A stretch of 26,956 nucleotides of DNA from an uncultured Steroidobacteraceae bacterium. GTDB taxonomy: Bacteria > Pseudomonadota > Gammaproteobacteria > Steroidobacterales > Steroidobacteraceae. Under the pieces are notes generated by a model. That model was not told the origin of the DNA and ran no database searches. It was given only the letters and a program-made list of their open reading frames with translations. Where the stretch lies: contig CAYWMY010000003.1 in the NCBI GenBank assembly GCA_964459405.1, positions 1-26,956 on the forward strand, in the 5' to 3' direction. The first letter of the stretch is position 1; each line of letters begins with the position of its first letter. The translations under genes were made by a program, and so were the position numbers. Positions 16,539 through 26,956 of this stretch are shown here, piece after piece.

Positions 16539-18002
16539 CTACAGACCGAGCTGCGGCCAGATGCTGTCGACCCGTGCGCGCACCTCGGCCGTCATCGCGA
16601 TCGGCCGGCCCCACTCGCGCGTCGTTTCTGCGGGCCACTTGTTCGTGGCGTCGATGCCGACCTTGGAGCCCAGGCCCGCGACGGGTGACGCGAAATCGAG
16701 ATAGTCGATCGGCGTGTTCTCGATGATCACGAGATCACGCCGCGGGTCCACACGCGTGGTCATGGCCCAGACGACCTCTTTCCAGTCACGCGCATCGACG
16801 TCGTCGTCGGTCACGATCACGAACTTCGTGTACATGAACTGGCGCAGGAACGACCACACGCCCATCATCACGCGCCTCGCGTGCCCCGGATACTGCTTCT
16901 TCATGCTCACGACCGCCATGCGATACGAGCATCCTTCGGGCGGCAGATAGAAATCCACGATCTCGGGGAACTGCCGCTGCAGGATCGGTACGAACACCTC
17001 GTTCAGCGCCACGCCCAGCACCGCCGGCTCGTCAGGCGGCTTGCCCGTGTAGGTGCTGTGATAGATCGGTCTCTGGCGATGCGTGATGCGCTCGATGGTC
17101 AGGACGGGAAACCGTTCCGTCTCGTTGTAATAGCCGGTGTGGTCGCCGAACGGCCCCTCGACGGCCGTATCGTCGGGATTGATGAAACCCTCGAGCACGA
17201 TCTCCGCGCTGGCCGGCACCTGCAGGTCGTGCGACAGACAGGTCACGAGCTCGGTGCGGCTGCCACGCAGCAGCCCTGCGAAGGCGTACTCCGACAGCGT
17301 GTCCGGCACTGGCGTGACGGCCGCGAGGATCGTCGCCGGGTCGGCGCCCAGCGTCACCGCGACGGGAAACGGCTGGCCTGGATTCGCCCGCTGCCAGTCG
17401 CGGAAATCGAGCGCGCCGCCGCGATGCGCGAGCCAGCGCATGATGACGCGGTTTCGATCGATGACCTGCTGCCGGTAGATGCCCATGTTCTGGCGCGCTC
17501 TGCCGGGTCCGCGCGTGGTTACAAGGCCCCAGGTGATCAGGGGACCCGCGTCGCCGGGCCAGCAGGTCTGGATCGGAAAGCGCGCCAGATCCACGGCCTC
17601 ACCCTCCAGCACGACCTCGCGGCAGGGCCCGTCACGCCTCTCCTTCGGCGCCATGTCGAGCGCCCTGCGGAACACCGGCAGCTTGTCCCATGCGTCGCGC
17701 CAGCCGCGCGGCGGCTCCGGCTCCTTGAGCTGGGCGAGCAGCAGGCCCACCTCACGCAGTTCCGCGACCTGCTCGCGACCCAGCGCGAGCGCCACGCGCG
17801 CAGGCGTGCCGAACAGGTTGCCGAGGACCGGCACCGTGTGCCCCTTCGGCCGCTCGAACAGGAGCGCCGGACCGGCCCGCTTCAGGGTACGGTCGCAGAT
17901 CTCCGTCATCTCGAGCCTGGGGTCGACCTCGACGCCGATGCGCCGCAGTTCGCCACGTGCCTCCAACTGGCTGAGCAGGTCGCGAAGATCGGTGTATTCC
18001 AT
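16539..18002 (-). CDS. ubiD: prFMN-dependent 4-hydroxy-3-polyprenylbenzoate decarboxylase
   Basis: [45 protein letters not shown] and GIDATNK motifs, very close to E. coli-type UbiD. Confidence 0.96.
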
Positions 18003-18041
18003 GTCGTTGTTCCGGGAACCACGGTTGCAGGACCGGCAAGC

Positions 18042-19136
18042 CTACAGGAGACGCCGGCGAAATCGTCCGACCGACGCGAGCAGCAGCACGACGAAGATCG
18101 CCGTCAGCTTCAGCAGCGGCGCGACGAGTTCGTCGAGCGAAGCGTCACGCAGCGCGATGCCGCGGACAATCACATTGTAGTGCGTCAGCGGCAGGGCCTC
18201 GGCGAGCCACTGCGCGACGCGGGGCATGCCATCGAACGGGAACACCGCGCCCGACAGCAGGATCGACGGCAGCAGGAACAGCACCGCCATCTGGAACGCC
18301 TGGAACTGCGTGCGCGTCAATGTCGAGATCAGGAGCCCGTTCGCGAGCGTCGCGCTGATGAACAACAGCGTACCCAGGTACAGCTGCGGCAGCGAGCCGC
18401 GGACCGGTACGTCGAACAGCGCGGCGCCGAACCACAGGATCAGCGTCACCTGCACGAAGCCGATCAGCACGTAGGGCAGCAGCTTTCCGGCCAGCAGCTC
18501 CGCCGGAGCCACGGGCGTGCTGAGCAGGAGTTCCATGTTGCCGCGCTCGCGCTCGCGAACGACGGCTCCGGCCGCGAACACCAGCATCGTCAGCGTCACG
18601 ATCATGCCGACCAGCGCAGGCACGATCTGCACCGCCGTACGCCGCTCGACGTTGTATTCGACGCGAACCTCCATCGGCGCCACGCGATGCGTCCCCCCGG
18701 GCGCTCGCAGTACCGGCAGGGAGCCCAGCTTCAGCGCGATGCCCTCGAGGTTCGGCTGCGAGCCATCGACCAGCACGTGCAGTGCGGGCCGGTCGCCGCG
18801 CGCGAGCCGGCGCTCGAAGTCCGGCGGCACGATCACGGCGAGACCGATGGCGCCGCTGCGCAACGCCTGCATCAGCTGCCGCTCGCTCTGCGCGGCGAGC
18901 ACCGGCCGCGCCACCTGTGTGGCGGCCAGCTCGGCGACGAGCTGGCGGGAGAGCGCCGTGCGTGCCTCGTCGAATACGCCCGTCTTCAGATCGCGGACGT
19001 CGAAGTTGATCGCATAACCGAACACCACGATCTGCATGGCGGGAATGCCGACGATCATGGCGAAGGAGAGCCGGTCGCGGCCGAGCTGCCGCAGCTCCTT
19101 CCTGGCCACGGCCCACAGCCGCGACAGCCGGCTCAC
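18042..19136 (-). CDS. ABC-2 type exporter permease (YbhR/YbhS-like)
   Basis: KELRQLGRD, FGYAINFDV, VRERERGNMELLLSTPV, LLSGAVFP and PLTHY motifs. GTGA overlap with the ATPase gene. Confidence 0.9.
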   Translation of the reverse strand: MSRLSRLWAVARKELRQLGRDRLSFAMIVGIPAMQIVVFGYAINFDVRDLKTGVFDEARTALSRQLVAELAATQVARPVLAAQSERQLMQALRSGAIGLAVIVPPDFERRLARGDRPALHVLVDGSQPNLEGIALKLGSLPVLRAPGGTHRVAPMEVRVEYNVERRTAVQIVPALVGMIVTLTMLVFAAGAVVRERERGNMELLLSTPVAPAELLAGKLLPYVLIGFVQVTLILWFGAALFDVPVRGSLPQLYLGTLLFISATLANGLLISTLTRTQFQAFQMAVLFLLPSILLSGAVFPFDGMPRVAQWLAEALPLTHYNVIVRGIALRDASLDELVAPLLKLTAIFVVLLLASVGRFRRRLL

Positions 19137-20128
19137 GAGCCGTCCCCGATGAGGCGGCCCTCGCGTTCACGGAAGCCGGTCGCGGCGACGAATACATCCT
19201 CGAGCGAGGCGGAAACCCGCTCGACATGGGCATCGACGTTCGCGGCGCGAAGTGCCTGCACAACAGCATGCTCCGGCCGTTCCAGCTCGCGGCGCATCAA
19301 TACGTGCAGCCGGGCGCCGAGCTGCGCCATGCTGCGCACACCTTCGAGGGCCTGCAGCGTGGCGCGCACCACCTGCATGTCCACGGCCTCGACCTCGACC
19401 ACCGTCGCGTCGATTCCGGTCATGAGCCGCCGCGGCGCCCCCTCGGCGACGATGCGGCCGAGGTCCAGGATCGCGAGCCGGTGACAGCGCTCCGCCTCGT
19501 CCATGTAGTGTGTCGACACCAGGATCGTGGTGCCGAGCGCGGCGAGTTCGAACAGTCCCTCCCAGAAATCGCGGCGGCTCTGTGGATCGACGGCGCTCGT
19601 CGGCTCGTCGAGCAGCAGCAGTTCGGGTTCGTGCAGGGTCGCCGCCGCGAGCGCGAGCCGCTGGCGCTGGCCGCCGCTCAGCGTGCCCGCGCGCCGCCCG
19701 GCCAGCTCGACGAGCCGGTAGCGCGCCATGCGCTCGCCGACGCGGGCGTCACGCCGGGCCCTGGCAACGCCATAGATGCAGCTCATGAACTCCAGGTTCT
19801 CGCGCACCGTCAGGTCGTCCCAGAGCGAGAACTTCTGGGTCATGTACCCGAGCTTGCGTCGCACGGCATGCGCCGCGCGCGGCATCTCGTGCCCGAGCAC
19901 CCGCGCGAGGCCGGCACTCGGCGCCAGCAGGCCGCACAGTATCCTGAGCGTGGTCGACTTGCCGGAGCCGTTGGGCCCGAGGAAGCCGTAGATGTGGCCC
20001 CGCGGAATGTCGAGGTCGATACCCGCGACAGCCACCACCGGACCGAAGTGGCGCGACAGACCCCGCGCGACGATGGCAAGGCCGGGGTCGACATCCGGCA
20101 TGGCGGCAGCTGCAGCGCGGGCGCTCAT
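19133..20128 (-). CDS. ABC exporter ATP-binding subunit
   Basis: Walker A GPNGSGKS, signature LSGGQ, Walker B LLLDEPT, H-loop STHY. Confidence 0.93.
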   Translation of the reverse strand: MSARAAAAAMPDVDPGLAIVARGLSRHFGPVVAVAGIDLDIPRGHIYGFLGPNGSGKSTTLRILCGLLAPSAGLARVLGHEMPRAAHAVRRKLGYMTQKFSLWDDLTVRENLEFMSCIYGVARARRDARVGERMARYRLVELAGRRAGTLSGGQRQRLALAAATLHEPELLLLDEPTSAVDPQSRRDFWEGLFELAALGTTILVSTHYMDEAERCHRLAILDLGRIVAEGAPRRLMTGIDATVVEVEAVDMQVVRATLQALEGVRSMAQLGARLHVLMRRELERPEHAVVQALRAANVDAHVERVSASLEDVFVAATGFREREGRLIGDGS

Positions 20129-21105
20129 GGGTTGCGGGCATCATGCAGCAGGCGCACCTGCGCCGGTACGCCGACCGGCAGCGCCGCGGCTTCGCGATCG
20201 ATGAGCTCCACTTCCGTGAGGAACGCGAGCCGGGCCCGCTCGCGCTGGGTCAGCGCGTAGTACGGTGTAAACGCCGCTTCGTTGCTGACGTAGCGCACGC
20301 GCCCGCGAAAGACCCGGTCGATGCCGTCGACGCGCACCTCGGCCGGCGTGCCGATGCGCACCGCCGTGCGCCGCGGCTCGGGCACGTAGATGCGGACCCA
20401 GGGTGCGCCATCGGCGAGCAGCACGGCCACGGTGGCACCCGCGGGCGGCCGTTCGCCGCGCTCGTACGGCAGACTGTCGAGCCAGCCCGGCACCGGCGCA
20501 CGGATCTCGAGCCTGCCCGAGGTGACCTCGAGCTCCCGCACGCGCGCAGCGGCAGCGGCCTGCGCCGAACGGGCCTGATCGATCTGCTCGGCACGCGTCC
20601 CGCGGACCAGGAGACCGAGCTCGGCCTCGGCGCGGCGCAGCTCCGCCTGCGCGGCATCGCGCAGTGCCCGCTGCCGGTCGAGGTCCGCCATCGGCAGCAG
20701 CTGCTTCGCAACGACCGTACTGATGCGCGCAAATTCCTGTTCCTCGGCCAGCGCCCGGGCGCGCGCCGCGTCCAGCGCGGCGGCCGCGGCGCGGATTTCC
20801 TCGCGGCGCGGGCCCTCGATGAGCTCATCGAGTCGCTGGCGCGCCTGCGCCTCGGCTGCGCGAGCCGCCGCGAGCCGCGCGTCGACGGCCCTCCGGTCCT
20901 GCCGCAGCACGGGCTGACCCGCGGCGAGATGCGCCCCCTCACGCGCGTCGATGGCCACGATCGGCTCGGAAACCTCCGCGACGAGTTCGACACGGTCGCG
21001 CTCCAGCGTGCCGAGCAGGGCGTCATCGGGATCGCGTTCGCAGCCGGCCAGCAACGCACAGCCCAGGACGACCCCCGTCATCCGGATACTCCACCCCGGG
21101 CTCAT
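20125..21105 (-). CDS. HlyD-family periplasmic adaptor (YbhG-like), predicted lipoprotein
   Basis: Lipobox LAGC, lipoyl halves (GAHLAAGQPV, IRAPVPG), a long alanine-rich hairpin, FTPYY. Start set at ATG 21105 with GGGG upstream; the track start is 21129. Confidence 0.88.
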   Translation of the reverse strand: MSPGWSIRMTGVVLGCALLAGCERDPDDALLGTLERDRVELVAEVSEPIVAIDAREGAHLAAGQPVLRQDRRAVDARLAAARAAEAQARQRLDELIEGPRREEIRAAAAALDAARARALAEEQEFARISTVVAKQLLPMADLDRQRALRDAAQAELRRAEAELGLLVRGTRAEQIDQARSAQAAAAARVRELEVTSGRLEIRAPVPGWLDSLPYERGERPPAGATVAVLLADGAPWVRIYVPEPRRTAVRIGTPAEVRVDGIDRVFRGRVRYVSNEAAFTPYYALTQRERARLAFLTEVELIDREAAALPVGVPAQVRLLHDARNP

Positions 21106-21180
21106 CGCGCGCATCCCCTTCGTGGACACGACAGGCCTGGCGCGAACCCGGGCGGGTCACGACTCATGCACGATCGGGGT

Positions 21181-21423
21181 TCAGCTGCGCGGTGCCTCAT
21201 GATCCCGGGGTGCTGGCGGGCTGGCGTCCTCCGGGCCCGGCATCACGAACCAAAGCAGCAGGTACGCGACGATGCCGGGAAGACCGCCGGTCAGGATGGT
21301 CGCGATGGCCACCGCGACCCGCACGCGATCCTTCGGCCAGCCGAGACGTTCGGCGATGCCGCCGCAGACCCCGCCGATCATGCGGTCACGCGAACGCCGC
21401 CAGACCACATTCGCTCCGTTCAT
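21181..21423 (-). CDS. pspC: PspC-domain membrane protein (80 aa)
   Basis: WRRSRDRMIGGVCGGIAERLGW, one TM segment, and YLLLWFVMP. ATG at 21421-21423 with GGGGG upstream. Confidence 0.85.
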   Translation of the reverse strand: MNGANVVWRRSRDRMIGGVCGGIAERLGWPKDRVRVAVAIATILTGGLPGIVAYLLLWFVMPGPEDASPPAPRDHEAPRS

Positions 21424-21555
21424 CGCGATACCCCCCATGACGGATCCTGAACCCGGCAGGCCGGGCCTGTCCTGCCCGCGCTCCGGGCCCGCCCCGCCGT
21501 GGCGGCGCGGCCGGACATACAACCGCGCGCCGCGGAGGCCGCCCCGCGCGCACGA

Positions 21556-22224
21556 TCAGCGCGCGAACAGCCTCGCTGGTGAGAACGCCCGCGCGCGCGC
21601 GCGGGCATGCTCGACGATCAGCCGATAATCGCTGGTCAGAACGCGTGGATCATGCGGTGCCGGGAAAGTGGCAACCAGAGCGCCCGAAGGACCCACGACA
21701 AACAGGCTCGAGCCATGCTCGATCGTGTAAGTTCCATCCGGGCGCACGATGCGCGCATACCCCAGCCCGAAAACCTGCGCCGTACGCGAGATCGCCTGCG
21801 GCGTGCCGGTCGCGGCCAGGAATCCCGGATTGAACGACCGCACATAGGATTGCAGTCGTGCGGCGTCGTCCCGTTCCGGATCAACCGTGATCAGCAGCAC
21901 GCGCGGACGGTCGGTGGCGGGAATGTCCTGCAGCTGGCGGTCCACCTGCGCGAGCATCGCGAGCGTGGTCGGGCAGACATCCGGGCAGGCCGTGAAGCCG
22001 AAGAAGACCAGGGTCCAGTGACCCTTGAACGCGTCCTCGCCGAAGGGCCGTCCGTCCTGGTCCGTGAGCGACAGAGCCGGCAGTGCGCCCGACTCGCTCA
22101 GCAGAGAAGCGCGCACCAGGGGTGGCGGCGCGGGCGGCGAGAACAGTGCGCGCGCGGCCAGGTACCCGAGTACCGTGGCGCCGACCACCAGCACGACGAG
22201 GCGGATCACCCGTGCGGTTGTCAT
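21556..22224 (-). CDS. SCO/SenC-family copper chaperone, N-terminally anchored (222 aa)
   Basis: FFGFTACPDVCP (CxxxCP), ITVDPERD, and a conserved His in IEHGS. ATGA overlap with the hemerythrin stop. Confidence 0.92.
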   Translation of the reverse strand: MTTARVIRLVVLVVGATVLGYLAARALFSPPAPPPLVRASLLSESGALPALSLTDQDGRPFGEDAFKGHWTLVFFGFTACPDVCPTTLAMLAQVDRQLQDIPATDRPRVLLITVDPERDDAARLQSYVRSFNPGFLAATGTPQAISRTAQVFGLGYARIVRPDGTYTIEHGSSLFVVGPSGALVATFPAPHDPRVLTSDYRLIVEHARARARAFSPARLFAR

Positions 22225-22631
22225 GGCTGCGGCTGCTTCCCGGCAACGAAGCGGTGCAGGCGCACATCGAAGCTCGCGAAATGATCCCCGAACCACGCCG
22301 ACAGACGCTCCGAGAAACGGGCCTCGTCGAGAATGCCCTGCTCGCTGACCTCGTCCATGATGTCGCGGATGTCATCGAGCAGCCGCTCGTGATCCTGCTT
22401 GTGTGCATCACGCTCGGGATAGCGCATGGCCTGCATGGACTTCTCTTCCAGCGCGAAATGCGCCGAAATGCGCGCGAGGATCTCGCCGAGGAATCCCTCG
22501 ACACGCTCAGGTGAATGATCCGTGCCGAGAGCAGCGTGCAGATCGTTGATCAGCTGGATCATCTCGCGATGCTCATGGTCCACTTCGGCGATGCCGATGC
22601 TGAACCGGTCCTGCCATTCGAGCACACCCAT
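22221..22631 (-). CDS. Single-domain bacterial hemerythrin (di-iron), 136 aa
   Basis: LEWQDRFSIGIAEVDHEH, HFALEE, HKQDH and HFASFD supply the usual His/Glu/Asp ligand pattern. ATG at 22629-22631 overlaps the upstream TAA; the track start at 22868 is an extension. Confidence 0.92.
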   Translation of the reverse strand: MGVLEWQDRFSIGIAEVDHEHREMIQLINDLHAALGTDHSPERVEGFLGEILARISAHFALEEKSMQAMRYPERDAHKQDHERLLDDIRDIMDEVSEQGILDEARFSERLSAWFGDHFASFDVRLHRFVAGKQPQP

Positions 22632-24745
22632 TACCGCGTCTCCCCGCCCGACAGCGTCGCCGGCACGAGCCGACGACCGAAACTGAAGGCGTTCTCCTTG
22701 CCGCGGAAGTCGATGACGAAATTCTCGCCGGGGGTGACCGTCACGGGGGCCGAGGTCGAGTAGTCGAATCCCGATGCACGCCCGCCGTCCCGCACACGGA
22801 CCGACGCCACGTGCGTGCCGGCCGGCACGCGGAAGCGCGCATAGACCGTCGACGGCCCGTCGTCCCACAGACCCGCCGGCTGATAGGTACCCGCGTGCAT
22901 ACGCCTGCCATCCAGGTCGAACTCGACGTATACGGGCCAGCGGCCGCGTTCACAGGTCGTCGGCCGGCGCTCTTCGAACGGCAGCTTCGCAAGCTCATCC
23001 GGCGTATAGCGCTTGCAGGGCTTCAGCGGCTGACCCGCGTGGCTGAAGCTCAGTTTCACCATGGCTTCGTCACGACCGAGCAGGCCGTAGGCCGGGCGGG
23101 TCGCGAACCAGGCAATGAACACAGCGACACCCGCAAGCACGGCCACCTGTCCAGCCACCCGGAGCGGCATGAGCAGCTGCCGCGGCGTGGCATGCCAGGC
23201 CCTGCCCGTGCGCCCCCTGGTCGGCGCTCCCGCGCGCTCGCGCAGCTGCGCACGGAACTCGCGCAGCTCATGCTGCAGGCGTCGGCCCTCGACCGCCGTG
23301 GTCCAGGAGACGGCGACGCGGTCGCGATCGACACGCTCGCGCAGGTACGGGTCGCGCTCGCTCGCGATGCGCTGCTCGACCCAGCGATCGCCCAGGCGGT
23401 GGAAGCAGTCGCCCGGGGCACACCCCGCGATCAGCACGCCGTCCGCCAGTTTCTTCGAGACCGCGAAATCAATGAACGACGGCGGCAGCATGCCCACGCA
23501 GGGCGCGGCGATCACGGCGACGCCGGGGTCCCGCAGCTGTTCGGCGCGGGTCGCGGGCTCGCAGCGGAACACGAGCACACGATCCTCGCCCTGCAGCGCT
23601 CCGGCCTCGGCCACCACGCGTTCACGGAGGGCCTCGATCGGCCGGTCCCCGAGCTCGATGCCGGGCACGAGCGCGCTCGAGCGCCGGAACGGCGTGGCCG
23701 TGGGGCATGCGCCCACGCACAGGCCGCAACTCGTGCACGCGTCGGGGTCGACGCGTGCCTCCTGATCGAACGTGAGCCCGTCGCTGCGCGGTACCATGGT
23801 AATGGCGCCATACGGACAGTCCGCGAAACAGCGCCCGCAGCCGTTGCAGTTGTCCAGGTGCACCACGGCGGGGGCCGGCTTGCGCAGCGGCGGCAGCCAG
23901 GGCATCAGCGTCAGCAGCACACTGCCGCCGACCAGCAGGGCCCAGAGCGTCCGGCCGTCCAGATAATCGAGCAGCGGGTAGACCGCGAGGTAGAACCAGT
24001 CGAGCCCGACCTCGAAGGCCATACGGTCGAGGTCGGCCGGCGCCTGGCTCAGGGCCGGCACGACCAGCGACAGCAGCAGCAGCGATCCGATCACCATCAG
24101 GCTGAGCGCTCGCGGCGGGTTGACGCGCGCGTGTGCATGCCGCTGGATGTGCACCCACATCATGAGCAGCATCACCAGCGGCACGGCGATGTGGATGTAG
24201 GCCATCAGCGTAAAGAAGCGGCCGCTCAGGTGCGTGCTGTCGAGGAAGTTGCGCGCGATGGGTTCGGCGAAGATGCCGATGCTGTCCAGCCATTCAGAGG
24301 TCGTGATCGCGACGTACTGTGCGAGCGCGTCCCATGCGAGCCAGTAGCCCGTGATGCCGCTGGCGTACAGGAACCAGAGCAGCGGCACGCCCGTGACCCA
24401 GGGGAACCAGCGGTTGCCGCGCATCCGGTCGAGCGAGAACTCCCGCAGCACGTGCAGCAGCACGACGATGACCATGCCGTCGGACGCGTAGCGGTGCAGG
24501 CTGCGCATGATGCCGCCCAGATACCACTGGTCGACCGACAGCTTCTCCAGCGAGCTGTACGCCTGCGTGACACCGGTATCGAAGAAGATGTAGACGTAGA
24601 TGCCCGTGACGGCGACGATCCAGAACAGGAACCAGCCGAGCGGTCCCAGGTGCACCATGGGATTCAGCGTCGGGCCGAAGATCGCGGCGCAGAACTGTTC
24701 GAGGCGCGCGAAGAACACGCGCAATGGAGCCTTGATGAAATTCAA
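22631..24745 (-). CDS. Cytochrome b / 2x[4Fe-4S] ferredoxin / MvhD-FlpD [2Fe-2S] / membrane-anchored C-terminal domain fusion (704 aa)
   Basis: Heme-b His pairs H84/H98 and H185/H199, GYWLAWD, CNGCGRCFADCP and CTSCGLCVGACP, MvhD-like C395, C416 and GCAPGDC (C442, C447), a TM segment at about 530-549, and a beta-rich C-terminus with C577 and C598. TTG start overlaps the upstream TGA. Confidence 0.88.
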   Translation of the reverse strand: MNFIKAPLRVFFARLEQFCAAIFGPTLNPMVHLGPLGWFLFWIVAVTGIYVYIFFDTGVTQAYSSLEKLSVDQWYLGGIMRSLHRYASDGMVIVVLLHVLREFSLDRMRGNRWFPWVTGVPLLWFLYASGITGYWLAWDALAQYVAITTSEWLDSIGIFAEPIARNFLDSTHLSGRFFTLMAYIHIAVPLVMLLMMWVHIQRHAHARVNPPRALSLMVIGSLLLLSLVVPALSQAPADLDRMAFEVGLDWFYLAVYPLLDYLDGRTLWALLVGGSVLLTLMPWLPPLRKPAPAVVHLDNCNGCGRCFADCPYGAITMVPRSDGLTFDQEARVDPDACTSCGLCVGACPTATPFRRSSALVPGIELGDRPIEALRERVVAEAGALQGEDRVLVFRCEPATRAEQLRDPGVAVIAAPCVGMLPPSFIDFAVSKKLADGVLIAGCAPGDCFHRLGDRWVEQRIASERDPYLRERVDRDRVAVSWTTAVEGRRLQHELREFRAQLRERAGAPTRGRTGRAWHATPRQLLMPLRVAGQVAVLAGVAVFIAWFATRPAYGLLGRDEAMVKLSFSHAGQPLKPCKRYTPDELAKLPFEERRPTTCERGRWPVYVEFDLDGRRMHAGTYQPAGLWDDGPSTVYARFRVPAGTHVASVRVRDGGRASGFDYSTSAPVTVTPGENFVIDFRGKENAFSFGRRLVPATLSGGETR

Positions 24746-25536
24746 TGTACGTTCCGCCAGGAAAGGACGATGGCAACGCCCACCATGCCGAGTGCAAGCA
24801 CTCCCGCGACGATCTCCATGATGAGCGAGGGATCGAAGCGATACTTGCCGCTCGCTGGATCATAGATGGTACACAACAGCTTGACCGAGCGGACGAGGTC
24901 GGACAGCGACCCTCGCTCGAGCGCCTGGCCGCGGATCAGCTGCTTCAGCGGCTCGACGAGCGCGGGCGGCCGGAGGTCCTGCCCGTAGACCTGCAGCGCG
25001 ACACGTCCGCCGGGGTCGATGACCGTGGTCTGGATGATGTGATCGAAACCCTTGGGCGACGCCTTGTAGCTGAAACCCACGTCGCGCATGAGTCTCTCCA
25101 TGGTCGCGGCGTCGGTGCTGGCGAAGATCCAGTCGGGCGTCACGACGCCGCGTTCCCGGGCGTAGAGACGCATGCGCTCCGGCGTGTCGTTCGGGGTGTC
25201 GAAGCCCACCGTCAGTACCGTGAAGCTCCCCGGCCCCAGTGCCTGCCGCGCAAGCTTCACGACCTCGCGCAGGTTCACGGTCAGCCCGGAGCAGATCGCA
25301 TAGCAGCTCGTATAGACAAGGCTCAGCACCACCGGCCTGCCGCGCAGTTCAGCGAAGCTGAACCGCGTGCCATCAGCGTCGATCAGCGCATGGTCACCGA
25401 CGACCCGGCCGATCGCCGCCTGGCTCGCGGCCAGTTCGGGATTCTCCGTGACGGGCACGGACCGGGCCGCAAGCAACGGCAGCAACCACAGCGCTGCAAC
25501 CACGGCCGCCCGGAATCTCGTTTGCACTGAAGGCAT
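24742..25536 (-). CDS. SCO-family protein with a signal peptide and a C-terminal TM anchor (264 aa)
   Basis: YTSCYAICS (C78xxxC82), TVGFDTPNDTP, His in GFDHII, and CTIYDPASGKY before a C-terminal hydrophobic helix. Confidence 0.87.
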   Translation of the reverse strand: MPSVQTRFRAAVVAALWLLPLLAARSVPVTENPELAASQAAIGRVVGDHALIDADGTRFSFAELRGRPVVLSLVYTSCYAICSGLTVNLREVVKLARQALGPGSFTVLTVGFDTPNDTPERMRLYARERGVVTPDWIFASTDAATMERLMRDVGFSYKASPKGFDHIIQTTVIDPGGRVALQVYGQDLRPPALVEPLKQLIRGQALERGSLSDLVRSVKLLCTIYDPASGKYRFDPSLIMEIVAGVLALGMVGVAIVLSWRNVH

Positions 25537-25615
25537 GTCCCGACCGCCGTCCCGTCAGCCCGCCCCGGGGCCACAGGTGGCTGCACCCGCCCCCCGCAAC
25601 AGCGGCACCCGCGTC

Positions 25616-25629
25616 TTGTCTCGCACCAA
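25616..25629. promoter_or_regulatory. Possible Crp/Fnr-family (FNR/DNR/NnrR) box
   Basis: TTGGT-GCGA-GACAA on the minus strand keeps the TTG-N8-CAA core but has 3 mismatches to TTGAT-N4-ATCAA. It lies 80 bp upstream of the SCO start. No clear -10 element. Confidence 0.3.
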
Positions 25630-25881
25630 GCGACTCTCCCGGATCGGCTCGAGGCCGCGCGCCGCCACAGGGTGGCAGCAGCCCGAGCCGGGCGGTTGCG
25701 ATCGATGGTACAACGGCGGGAGCCCGAAATGTGCCCGTGCACCGCGCAAGGGGGCTCAGGCTGAACGACAGGACCGGGACGAGGGAGCCGTCGCGTCGCA
25801 TGTCCGCGACCGCGGCATCGGATGGGCGCCGTGGCCACTTCGGGCGCCCGACGCCCGTTCGATTCTGGAAATCCGGGTGCC

Positions 25882-25913
25882 GCGCCCGCGCACAGCCCTC
25901 TGTGCGCGGGCGC
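25882..25913 (-). terminator. Perfect 14-bp GC hairpin 7 nt after the subunit I stop
   Basis: GCGCCCGCGCACAG-CCCT-CTGTGCGCGGGCGC. No U-tract follows on the minus strand, so it is a 3'-protecting stem or partial terminator rather than a classic one. Confidence 0.55.
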
Positions 25914-25920
25914 CTCGAGG

Positions 25921-26956
25921 TCACTTCAGCGGCCAGATCTCGGCCACGTACTTCCAGTTGACGAAGTAGTACAGCACGAAGGAGACGAAGAACACGCCCA
26001 CGAGGACCACGGTACCCGGGATGTACAGCGTGCCCTGGTTGCCGTAGCTCGCGACGGCCGCCGCGGACTTGGCGCCGCTCACAGGCCCCAGTTGCACGGC
26101 CTCCTTGTCACCGATCTTGCGGCCGAACAGCACCGTGCAGACAACGGTTACGACGTACATCGCGCCGCCCAGAGCCGCCATGATCGCCGAGATGCCGTTC
26201 AGCGCCAGCATCAGGAACGCCGCCGGCGAGTACTGGAACTGCGTCAGCGCATCGGCAAAGGTGATGTCCCAGTGCCGCCGCGGCACGCCCAGCGTGCCCG
26301 CGCCCATCATGAACAGCGAGATTCCCGCCGCGCCGAGCCCGAAGATGTACGGCTGCAGCTTGGCCACCGTCGGGAAGATCACCTCACGACGGAAGATCAG
26401 CGGCAGGACGAGGTACGTGATCGCCATGAAGGCGAGCGTCGTACCGGTCACGACCGTCGCATGGAAGTGACCCGGCACGTAGAGCGTGTTGTGCATCGTC
26501 AGGTTGATCTGCTCCGTTCCGAGCACGACGCCCGTGATGCCGCCCAGGAAGCCGAAGTACACGAGCGACATGAACATGCCCGAGAACGCCGGGTTGCCCC
26601 ATGGCGCCTTGCGCAGCCACTCGAACAGGCCCTTCGTGTAGCCCTTGGCGCGCTGCGCGGCCTCGATCGCGCCCGGCACGGTCATGCCGTGGATCATGCT
26701 GCCCATGACCGCCAGGTACATCGCATAGCTGGTATTGAAGATCTTCCAGCTCGAGCTGACACCCGGCTCCGCCAGCAGGTGGTGCGCGCTGGCGAGCTGC
26801 AGGAACAGGATGTACATCAGGTAGGCCGCACGGCTGACCTTCTCGGAGATCGGCTTGGCGCCCAGCACCATCGCACCGATGGCGTACCACACGGCCACGT
26901 GGGCCGAGACGTTGATCTGCTGGGAGGAATGGCCCATGGCCCACCACACCAGCTTG
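25921..26956 (-). CDS. Heme-copper oxidoreductase subunit I, B-family-like fold with Tyr-to-Gln active site (putative eNOR-type nitric oxide reductase), 5'-truncated
   Basis: The frame is open to the window edge (KLVWWAMGHSSQQIN...). CuB/FeB ligands: H at 26929-26931 and SAHH at 26779-26784. HNTLYVPGHFH (26461-26493) matches the ba3-type HNT..VPGHFH, and the VPRR arginine pair is present. The residue at His+4 is Gln, not Tyr. Confidence 0.85.
   Translation of the reverse strand, partial: KLVWWAMGHSSQQINVSAHVAVWYAIGAMVLGAKPISEKVSRAAYLMYILFLQLASAHHLLAEPGVSSSWKIFNTSYAMYLAVMGSMIHGMTVPGAIEAAQRAKGYTKGLFEWLRKAPWGNPAFSGMFMSLVYFGFLGGITGVVLGTEQINLTMHNTLYVPGHFHATVVTGTTLAFMAITYLVLPLIFRREVIFPTVAKLQPYIFGLGAAGISLFMMGAGTLGVPRRHWDITFADALTQFQYSPAAFLMLALNGISAIMAALGGAMYVVTVVCTVLFGRKIGDKEAVQLGPVSGAKSAAAVASYGNQGTLYIPGTVVLVGVFFVSFVLYYFVNWKYVAEIWPLK

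Follow-up and report, generated by a model that had tools for sequence, protein, structure and literature searches.

The cupric reductase CcoG carries two [4Fe-4S] clusters and a periplasmic Ig-like C-terminal domain, and its gene lies directly after the cbb3 oxidase genes (PMC7558416). In the norSY-senC-orf1 (sNOR) clusters of ammonia oxidisers, a Tyr-less heme-copper enzyme of the CuA type is followed by genes for SCO/SenC and for an uncharacterised membrane protein (PMC4940428). Among enzyme families that reduce NO and produce N2O, eNOR is thought to be one of the most abundant in nature (PMC11214002); Gln at the cross-linked Tyr site of subunit I is diagnostic of it, and Asn marks sNOR (PMC8756737). 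Here we describe a 704-residue protein encoded in one cluster with an eNOR-type subunit I gene in an uncultured Steroidobacteraceae bacterium (contig CAYWMY010000003.1). The stretch analysed, hereafter the window, is the entire contig of 26,956 nucleotides (nt) and ends inside subunit I. Translation of the window gives a single uninterrupted frame joining a bc1-type cytochrome b, a ferredoxin with two [4Fe-4S] motifs, an MvhD domain and a C-terminal tail, residues 526–704. This tail is a genuine fusion of a normally separate protein of about 167 residues, made up of one N-terminal anchor and a beta-sandwich, and belongs to a family undescribed in Pfam, NCBIfam and the PDB.

CcoG (also FixG) is the nearest architectural analogue of the 704-residue protein, sharing with it cytoplasmic 2x[4Fe-4S] motifs, a further transmembrane (TM) helix, a C-terminal periplasmic Ig-like domain and a gene position after heme-copper oxidase genes (PMC7558416). 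However, CcoG has neither cytochrome b nor MvhD, and its Ig-like domain lacks conserved Cys. We rejected an identity of the tail with FixG_C (PF11614), to which it had no Pfam match and an hhalign probability of 0.5% against FixG_C sequences aligned from the same genome and its relatives. A bona fide CcoG/FixG is encoded elsewhere in the genome (C150:1594-1947; FixG_C 102 bits, 474-residue frame), so that the organism has at least one Fe-S membrane protein with a tail of this kind besides the eNOR-linked one. The Rieske subunit of bc1 and b6f complexes likewise has a single N-terminal anchor, a beta-rich head on the periplasmic (p) side and a disulfide-stapled loop, and is encoded beside a bc1-type cytochrome b as its p-side partner. 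Unlike it, the tail domain lacks the CxH...CxxH ligands, has two Cys only and shows no Rieske fold match; homology is limited to cytochrome b. A Rieske [2Fe-2S] identity was discarded because neither Cys is followed by xH or xxH and the free homologues have no N-terminal RR motif; motifs for a Rieske-like cluster, heme c or Tat export are absent from the tail and its homologues.

DsbD-alpha is likewise an Ig-like periplasmic domain whose Cys pair takes up electrons delivered across the membrane; its two Cys are closely spaced. DsbD differs in being a thiol cascade without hemes, and the Cys of the tail domain are 20 residues apart; with no Pfam match and with DsbD missing from the best-ranked Foldseek chains, identity with the DsbD N-terminal domain was set aside. 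In Fre, NOX, Steap and Dcytb proteins, electrons pass from a cytoplasmic reductant through flavin or Fe-S and two b hemes to an outside acceptor, a layout shared by a Fer2-FAD-NAD variant of the present system. Those proteins use another heme scaffold in place of the bc1-type cytochrome b and have no separate beta-sandwich subunit, and the system here is known from sequence.

A fused copy of a normally separate protein

The earlier note had read the tail as a Rosetta-stone fusion of a normally free, membrane-anchored periplasmic protein. An exhaustive HMMER search bore this out, in which the isolated tail was the query against 1.84 billion representative proteins (cut-off E<=1e-3). The domain was carried by 729 representative clusters, 300 of them at E<=1e-10, and the best 150 clusters were mostly proteins of 165–175 residues in which the match covered roughly residues 5–165. 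Free homologues were complete proteins, three of them encoded on long, Mb-size contigs, and were operon-linked to a cytochrome b gene, with stand-alone open reading frames (ORFs) directly after the gene for the cytochrome b-ferredoxin-MvhD protein (cyt b-Fer4-FlpD). Across split loci, the domain gene started 2 nt after, or overlapped by 4–8 nt, the stop of a cytochrome b-containing gene. In three loci (L001-L003), for example, a 168-residue domain gene begins 2 nt past the stop of a 530-residue cyt b-Fer4-FlpD gene, and in L004 a 166-residue domain gene overlaps the stop of a cyt b-Fer2-FAD-NAD gene by 4 nt and is followed by the cyt b-Fer4-FlpD gene.

We scored 84 loci with phmmer, mostly from named metagenome-assembled genomes (MAGs) of Pseudomonadota. 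The domain was a separate gene starting within a few bases of the cytochrome b gene stop in 59/84, following the ferredoxin-MvhD gene in about 41 loci and an FNR-like (cyt b-Fer2-FAD-NAD) gene in 18; it was fused to ferredoxin-MvhD in 21 loci and frameshifted in 2 (L012, L027). In proteins of 453–465 residues such as P0164 and P0250 (loci L086/L087), the Fe-S module is missing and the TM helix and sandwich follow straight on the cytochrome b core; the gene for P0164 sits behind UbiA and SCO genes. The cytoplasmic electron-input module of the cytochrome b gene varies between a 2x[4Fe-4S] ferredoxin plus MvhD, an FNR-like Fer2-FAD-NAD unit and none. A further, more distant class of domain proteins, of about 240 residues (among them P0149, P0153, P0169 and P0197; L090), has an extra N-terminal TM helix before the anchor, a Lys/Arg/Glu-rich cytoplasmic loop between the two helices, and LSLSHPG instead of LSFSHAG; in L090 its gene lies directly behind an SCO gene and the cyt b-Fer4-FlpD gene, with a 4-nt overlap.

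The fusion junction is recognizable in the window. Residues 500-525 read LRERAGAPTRGRTGRAWHATPRQLL, an Arg/Gly/Ala/Thr-rich stretch that agrees with the low-complexity linker described from the sequence earlier. Residues 504–525 match the stop/start gap of the split genes, and the TM helix that follows is homologous to the N-terminal anchor of the free proteins. The ATG of Met526 does lie at 23168-23170, as had been noted, but conservation does not support an internal start there: Leu, Ala or Ser takes the place of Met in fused homologues, and no Shine-Dalgarno sequence precedes the codon. We therefore dropped the internal start and regard Met526 as a leftover position. The window is a MAG contig and two related loci are frameshifted, but 104 full-length homologues of about 700 residues and 21 independent MAG loci show the identical fused frame, which excludes an assembly artefact and, together with the features of Met526, leaves a frameshift, a lost stop or a separately translated tail with a next to negligible probability. 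In a FastTree tree of 108 domains, the window grouped with other fused sequences in a clade of 21 that had 98% support; further fused proteins lay elsewhere. The long open frame was present in 7 of the 21 carriers among 151 genomes of the order; in a sample of 401 genomes of the phylum, all 52 other carriers were split (52/52), with domain frames of 169–288 residues. Such a fusion event is in itself ordinary in evolution; here it gives direct genetic evidence that cytochrome b and the domain act together.

The host protein is a bc1-type cytochrome b extended by cytoplasmic Fe-S domains. Pfam placed Cytochrome_B at residues 26-200, two Fer4 motifs at 295-350 and FlpD/MvhD at 406-503. In a Foldseek search with the full-length model, residues 1 to about 290 aligned to bc1 cytochrome b chains (helices A-F; about 284 columns, E~1e-6) and the MvhD part matched the MvhD chains 8rvu_F and 5odh_D of Hdr complexes; bc1 cytochrome b and MvhD were the only proteins matched. 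Among 105 homologues, the heme-ligand residues His84, His98, His185 and His199 were invariant, as were all twelve Fe-S Cys, eight in the ferredoxin and four in MvhD (395, 416, 442, 447). The DE loop has three Lys/Arg and no Asp/Glu, the ef loop two Lys/Arg and six Asp/Glu, and the linker ahead of the seventh helix is Arg-rich. A cytoplasmic end of helix F, as in bc1 topology, fits Fe-S domains that carry no export signal. From the cytochrome b topology and this charge distribution, we infer that the Fe-S domains are cytoplasmic and that the seventh helix carries the sandwich to the periplasmic face.

Residues 526–704 had no Pfam or NCBIfam match even at E<=1. Source databases label the family 'hypothetical protein' or bury the domain within 'hydrogenase iron-sulfur subunit' annotations, and a search of the literature on eNOR and sNOR accessory genes, within the searchable library, found no description of this protein. 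The family deserves a database entry. What is new is a conserved two-part module, in which a bc1-type cytochrome b with exchangeable cytoplasmic inputs is combined with an undescribed single-pass periplasmic domain; the latter would join either the single-pass periplasmic partner subunits of cytochromes b or the accessory proteins of heme-copper enzymes.

A conserved loop between two cysteines

We counted conservation over 150 representatives, each standing for one 50%-identity cluster. Translation and codon counting had confirmed that the 179-residue tail contains an SFSH motif (residues 566-569) and exactly two Cys, Cys577 (23015-23017) and Cys598 (22952-22954). The proviso that these Cys might not be conserved can be put aside: Cys577 was kept in 140/144 sequences (97%) and Cys598 in 147/148 (99%), with the 20-residue spacing in 134/139. 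Sequences missing a Cys were mostly fragments or frameshifted; one complete representative of 168 residues (P0263) lacks both Cys and retains the remainder of the domain. The loop between and behind the Cys pair is rich in near-invariant Arg (Arg593 in 145/149, Arg600 in 149/149, Arg602 in 148/149), and Gly625 (150/150) and Asp629 (148/150) are comparably conserved. His569, the His of SFSH, was kept in 124/142 representatives (87%) and was invariant among fused homologues; His645 was kept in 111/144. The representative alignment shows no conserved Met outside an NMR motif, no CxxxC and no CxH.

The expected TM helix and beta-rich domain were recovered by AlphaFold2 both for the tail alone (predicted local distance difference test score (pLDDT) 90.9) and for the whole protein (pLDDT 85.6; predicted template modelling score (pTM) 0.82): in both models a helix at 526–549 is followed by a sandwich of 8–9 strands. 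Against the PDB, the domain model found only generic CBM41, CBM20, CARDB and Ig sandwiches (E>2e-3, TM scores 0.3–0.5) and nothing at E<1e-3, with neither DsbD-alpha nor a copper chaperone among the Foldseek matches; a profile search of PDB sequences also returned no match. DSSP assigned bridges 48/77, 53/72 and 54/71 around the Cys loop of the tail model (i+j=125, antiparallel) and 573/602 and 579/596 in the full-length model (i+j=1175). This shared antiparallel register would place Cys577 directly opposite Cys598 across neighbouring strands, as read from the DSSP strings. The best-conserved stretches, namely the Cys loop, PxGLxxDG and RxRD, appear by strand order to be loops at one end of the sandwich.

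Known copper proteins did not account for the domain. PCuAC (DUF461), CopC and CusF were rejected for want of a Pfam or NCBIfam match at E<=1, of a conserved Met outside NMR and of any such fold in Foldseek; SCO1/SenC was rejected because the fold is a beta-sandwich rather than thioredoxin and CxxxC is absent. The earlier note had proposed a DsbD-alpha-like redox shuttle or a copper site handing off to the SCO proteins, with a structural disulfide as a further option. Generic sandwich folds, the 20-residue Cys spacing and the lack of conserved Met, CxxxC or CxH neither demonstrate nor favour the first two, and a structural disulfide is at least as likely as either. Specifically, we lean slightly towards a cross-strand disulfide that staples the loop, given the absence of CxxC, the lack of a known heme-to-disulfide precedent and the natural variant without both Cys. 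A thiol-disulfide relay is a less likely use of the pair, and Cu(I) ligation a poor third.

Operon context and candidate roles

The gene order is almost invariant over the scored loci: COX2, COX1, (UbiA), SCO, cytochrome b-FeS, domain, hemerythrin, (SCO). Homologues of the domain are thus tied to this type of locus, contrary to the possibility, raised earlier, that they would show no link to it. The cluster belongs to eNOR: subunit I in the window carries GHSSQQ, with Gln at the Tyr site (His+4 in helix VI), GH(S/T)SQQ was found in 61/61 related loci with a complete subunit I, and 60/64 subunit II genes encode a CuA motif. The sNOR cluster of ammonia oxidisers, with its Tyr-less CuA-type enzyme followed by SCO/SenC and an uncharacterised membrane protein gene (PMC4940428), was our first guess, which was dropped since the active-site residue is Gln here and Asn there. 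Co-occurrence of the domain with eNOR-type subunit I was nearly perfect across proteobacterial genome samples. Among the 151 genomes of the order, 21 had both, none the domain only, one the oxidase only (a 70%-complete genome) and 129 neither; among the 401 genomes of the phylum, the corresponding numbers were 49, 4 (fragmented MAGs), 1 and 347. Fragmented MAGs aside, every carrier of the family also encoded an eNOR-type heme-copper NO reductase.

In one family of the phylum, the cytochrome b-FeS/domain pair is unlinked from the eNOR-UbiA-SCO operon. In genome G166 (loci L094, L096) it lies 926 kb from COX2-COX1-UbiA-SCO, in a setting of unrelated genes (methyltransferase, B12-radical-SAM, aminotransferase) and with no hemerythrin gene next to it, and the two genes are still neighbours. 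That the pair stays together far from the eNOR operon indicates that the closest tie of the domain is to the cytochrome b protein and not to SCO.

We propose that the domain serves a transmembrane electron wire as its partner subunit on the p side and turns its Cys/Arg loop towards a copper-related eNOR client, a reading to which we give an even chance. Electrons from a cytoplasmic donor would pass through the Fe-S clusters and the two b hemes to the periplasmic face, with ferredoxin-MvhD, FNR-like or no input module as exchangeable entries to the wire. Repeated fusion, fixed gene order and confident AlphaFold2 packing suggest that the sandwich is the physical p-side partner of cytochrome b, in a place comparable to that of the Rieske protein in bc1 complexes but with no Fe-S or heme motif. 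Conservation of its surface is highest at the loop bounded by Cys577 and Cys598, with Arg593, Arg600, Arg602, Glu584 and His569 along it; a copper-dependent client of eNOR in the periplasm, whether SCO, CuA or copper itself, may dock or be acted upon there. This would narrow experiments to a small target, a single loop whose key residues are two Cys, a His and three Arg.

Several points count against this proposal. The domain has no recognizable cofactor motif and so could not relay electrons by itself, unless through the Cys pair or a bound metal; a b heme that reduces a protein disulfide would, to our knowledge, be unprecedented. Maturation of the copper centres and electron donation to eNOR turnover fit gene order and co-occurrence equally well. 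The predicted Cys–Cys pairing and contact with cytochrome b are drawn only from DSSP strings and pTM. Well-supported branches of the 108-domain tree force at least four changes of the fused state, but the number of independent fusions is rough owing to a quick FastTree run with long branches. The loci on genome contigs were retrieved by one peptide pattern and all come from Pseudomonadota MAGs.

A bolder version, which we regard as possible but doubtful, is that cytochrome b and the sandwich form a new class of bacterial transmembrane reductase with a periplasmic Cys2His site that serves the maturation of eNOR-type NO reductases in particular, by reducing either Cu(II) or the cysteines at the copper sites of SCO or CuA. 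The domain would then be the catalytic head, a non-Fe-S counterpart of the Rieske protein, fed by ferredoxin-like, NAD(P)H or quinol modules through the two b hemes. Should the module prove to be a periplasmic copper or thiol reductase, copper-centre maturation would gain a further route, one based on heme; as an electron donor, the module would explain how eNOR is fed without cytochrome c.

Among the alternatives to a p-side partner subunit, the one that survives best, while still unlikely, is a redox relay in which the Cys577–Cys598 disulfide would be reduced through the p-side heme and pass equivalents to the CxxxC of SCO or the CuA cysteines of subunit II. The near-invariant Cys pair with its fixed spacing is consistent with such a relay, as is its cross-strand placement in both models, a geometry that many strained disulfides with redox activity share. 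In nearly all loci the cytochrome b gene is preceded by an SCO gene, a second one lies downstream in the window, and the operon showed no gene resembling TlpA. ScoI and CoxB are reduced by TlpA prior to their metallation (PMC7558416), and the relay would be the functional counterpart of TlpA or DsbD-alpha, driven by heme. Against this, the domain has no CxxC and neither a thioredoxin nor a DsbD-alpha fold, reduction of a protein disulfide by a b heme would be without known precedent, the complete 168-residue P0263 does without both Cys, and the pair in G166 is unlinked from the SCO gene.

It is less probable still that the wire acts as a cupric reductase, reducing Cu(II) at the p face in the manner of the eukaryotic Fre, Steap and Dcytb proteins, with Cys577, Cys598 and His569 holding Cu(I) and passing it to SCO. 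With NAD(P)H, flavin and heme in succession, the cyt b-Fer2-FAD-NAD variant is laid out like Fre/NOX-type metalloreductases, the Cys2His residues are similar to the SCO ligands, subunit II genes regularly encode CuA motifs, and the cupric reductase CcoG likewise has a periplasmic Ig-like end (PMC7558416). However, only 87% of representatives keep His569, the abundance of invariant Arg in the loop disfavours cation binding, and a periplasmic Cys pair would be oxidised unless maintained in reduced form. The domain moreover resembles neither FixG_C nor known copper chaperones, and the genome already encodes a bona fide CcoG.

Equally hard to credit is a respiratory role, in which the cytochrome b-FeS protein would be the dedicated donor feeding eNOR during turnover and the cofactor-less sandwich would dock CuA above the p-side heme through its basic Arg loop, the disulfide being purely structural. 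The near-perfect co-occurrence with eNOR subunit I, the pTM of the whole protein and the lack of any cytochrome c gene seen in the window's cluster are in keeping with this, and basic patches dock onto acidic CuA domains. Yet the genes stand with UbiA/CtaB-like and SCO genes in the half of the operon concerned with assembly, and a low-potential ferredoxin-MvhD or NAD(P)H input into a respiratory enzyme would waste energy.

Feature coordinates and neighbouring genes

Table 1 Features of the 704-residue ORF and its neighbours in the window
Feature	Position	Strand	Basis
704-residue ORF: cytochrome b, 2x[4Fe-4S] ferredoxin, MvhD, TM helix, periplasmic beta-sandwich; stop TAA 22631-22633	22631..24745	-	Translation, Pfam, AlphaFold2
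bc1-type cytochrome b core, residues 1-290, helices A-F	23876..24745	-	Pfam PF00033, invariant columns, Foldseek
Two [4Fe-4S] ferredoxin motifs, residues 295-350, eight invariant Cys, probably cytoplasmic	23696..23863	-	Pfam, homologue alignment
MvhD/FlpD-like domain, residues 406-503, probably cytoplasmic	23237..23530	-	Pfam, NCBIfam, homologue alignment, Foldseek
Arg/Gly/Ala-rich linker, residues 504-525, probably cytoplasmic; fusion junction	23171..23236	-	Translation, alignment, locus comparison
Seventh TM helix, residues 526-549	23099..23170	-	AlphaFold2 helix, hydropathy, alignment
Beta-sandwich, residues 552-689, probably periplasmic; undescribed family	22679..23092	-	AlphaFold2, Foldseek, conservation, PDB profile search
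Conserved loop Cys577-Arg602: C-R-x2-T-x-E-E-L-x2-L-P-x-N-M-R-x4-C-x-R-x-R	22940..23017	-	Alignment, conservation
His569 of SFSH motif	23039..23041	-	Conservation, homologue alignment
C-terminal tail end, residues 690-704, poorly conserved, low confidence (pLDDT <50 for 693-704)	22634..22678	-	AlphaFold2, alignment
SCO_A, SCO-like gene upstream, end overlaps ORF start	24742..25536	-	Position kept in related loci
Hemerythrin gene, start within TAATG overlap (22629-22633) with ORF stop	22221..22631	-	ORF and locus comparison
SCO_B, second, canonical SCO1/SenC gene	21556..22296	-	Family match
Heme-copper subunit I, C-terminal 344 residues, truncated at contig end, GHSSQQ	25921..26955	-	Motif; PMC8756737

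The remainder of subunit I appears on another contig. C139 (C139:1-1288) carries a subunit I N terminus (KVVWWALGHSSQQ; the window reads KLVWWAMGHSSQQ) and a CuA-type subunit II (CNEYCGLGHHTM), and overlaps window positions 26905-26956 by 52 nt at only 94% identity. The mismatch could reflect strain heterogeneity or a second copy and is probably the cause of the assembly break.

In most related operons, a UbiA/CtaB-like prenyltransferase gene stands between subunit I and the first SCO gene; the window and its closest relative (L006) lack it, and the window has a gap of 384 nt there (25537-25920). The hemerythrin gene is on the same strand after the domain gene in most gammaproteobacterial loci and convergent in L001-L003. 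In a betaproteobacterial variant operon (L004, L062-L064, L066, L067, L069-L071, L073, L074, L076, L078-L082, L084), a 646-residue cyt b-Fer2-FAD-NAD (FNR/NOX-like) gene precedes the free domain gene. A divergent COX1-like gene of about 420–474 residues comes next in many of these loci, the cytochrome b-ferredoxin-MvhD gene is always downstream, and in L063, from a Gallionella MAG, an NnrS gene adjoins the operon. Downstream in the window, on the strand of the cluster, 16539-21522 holds PspC-domain, HlyD-like, ABC ATPase, ABC-2 permease and UbiD-family genes; a PspC gene also lies behind SCO_B in L006.

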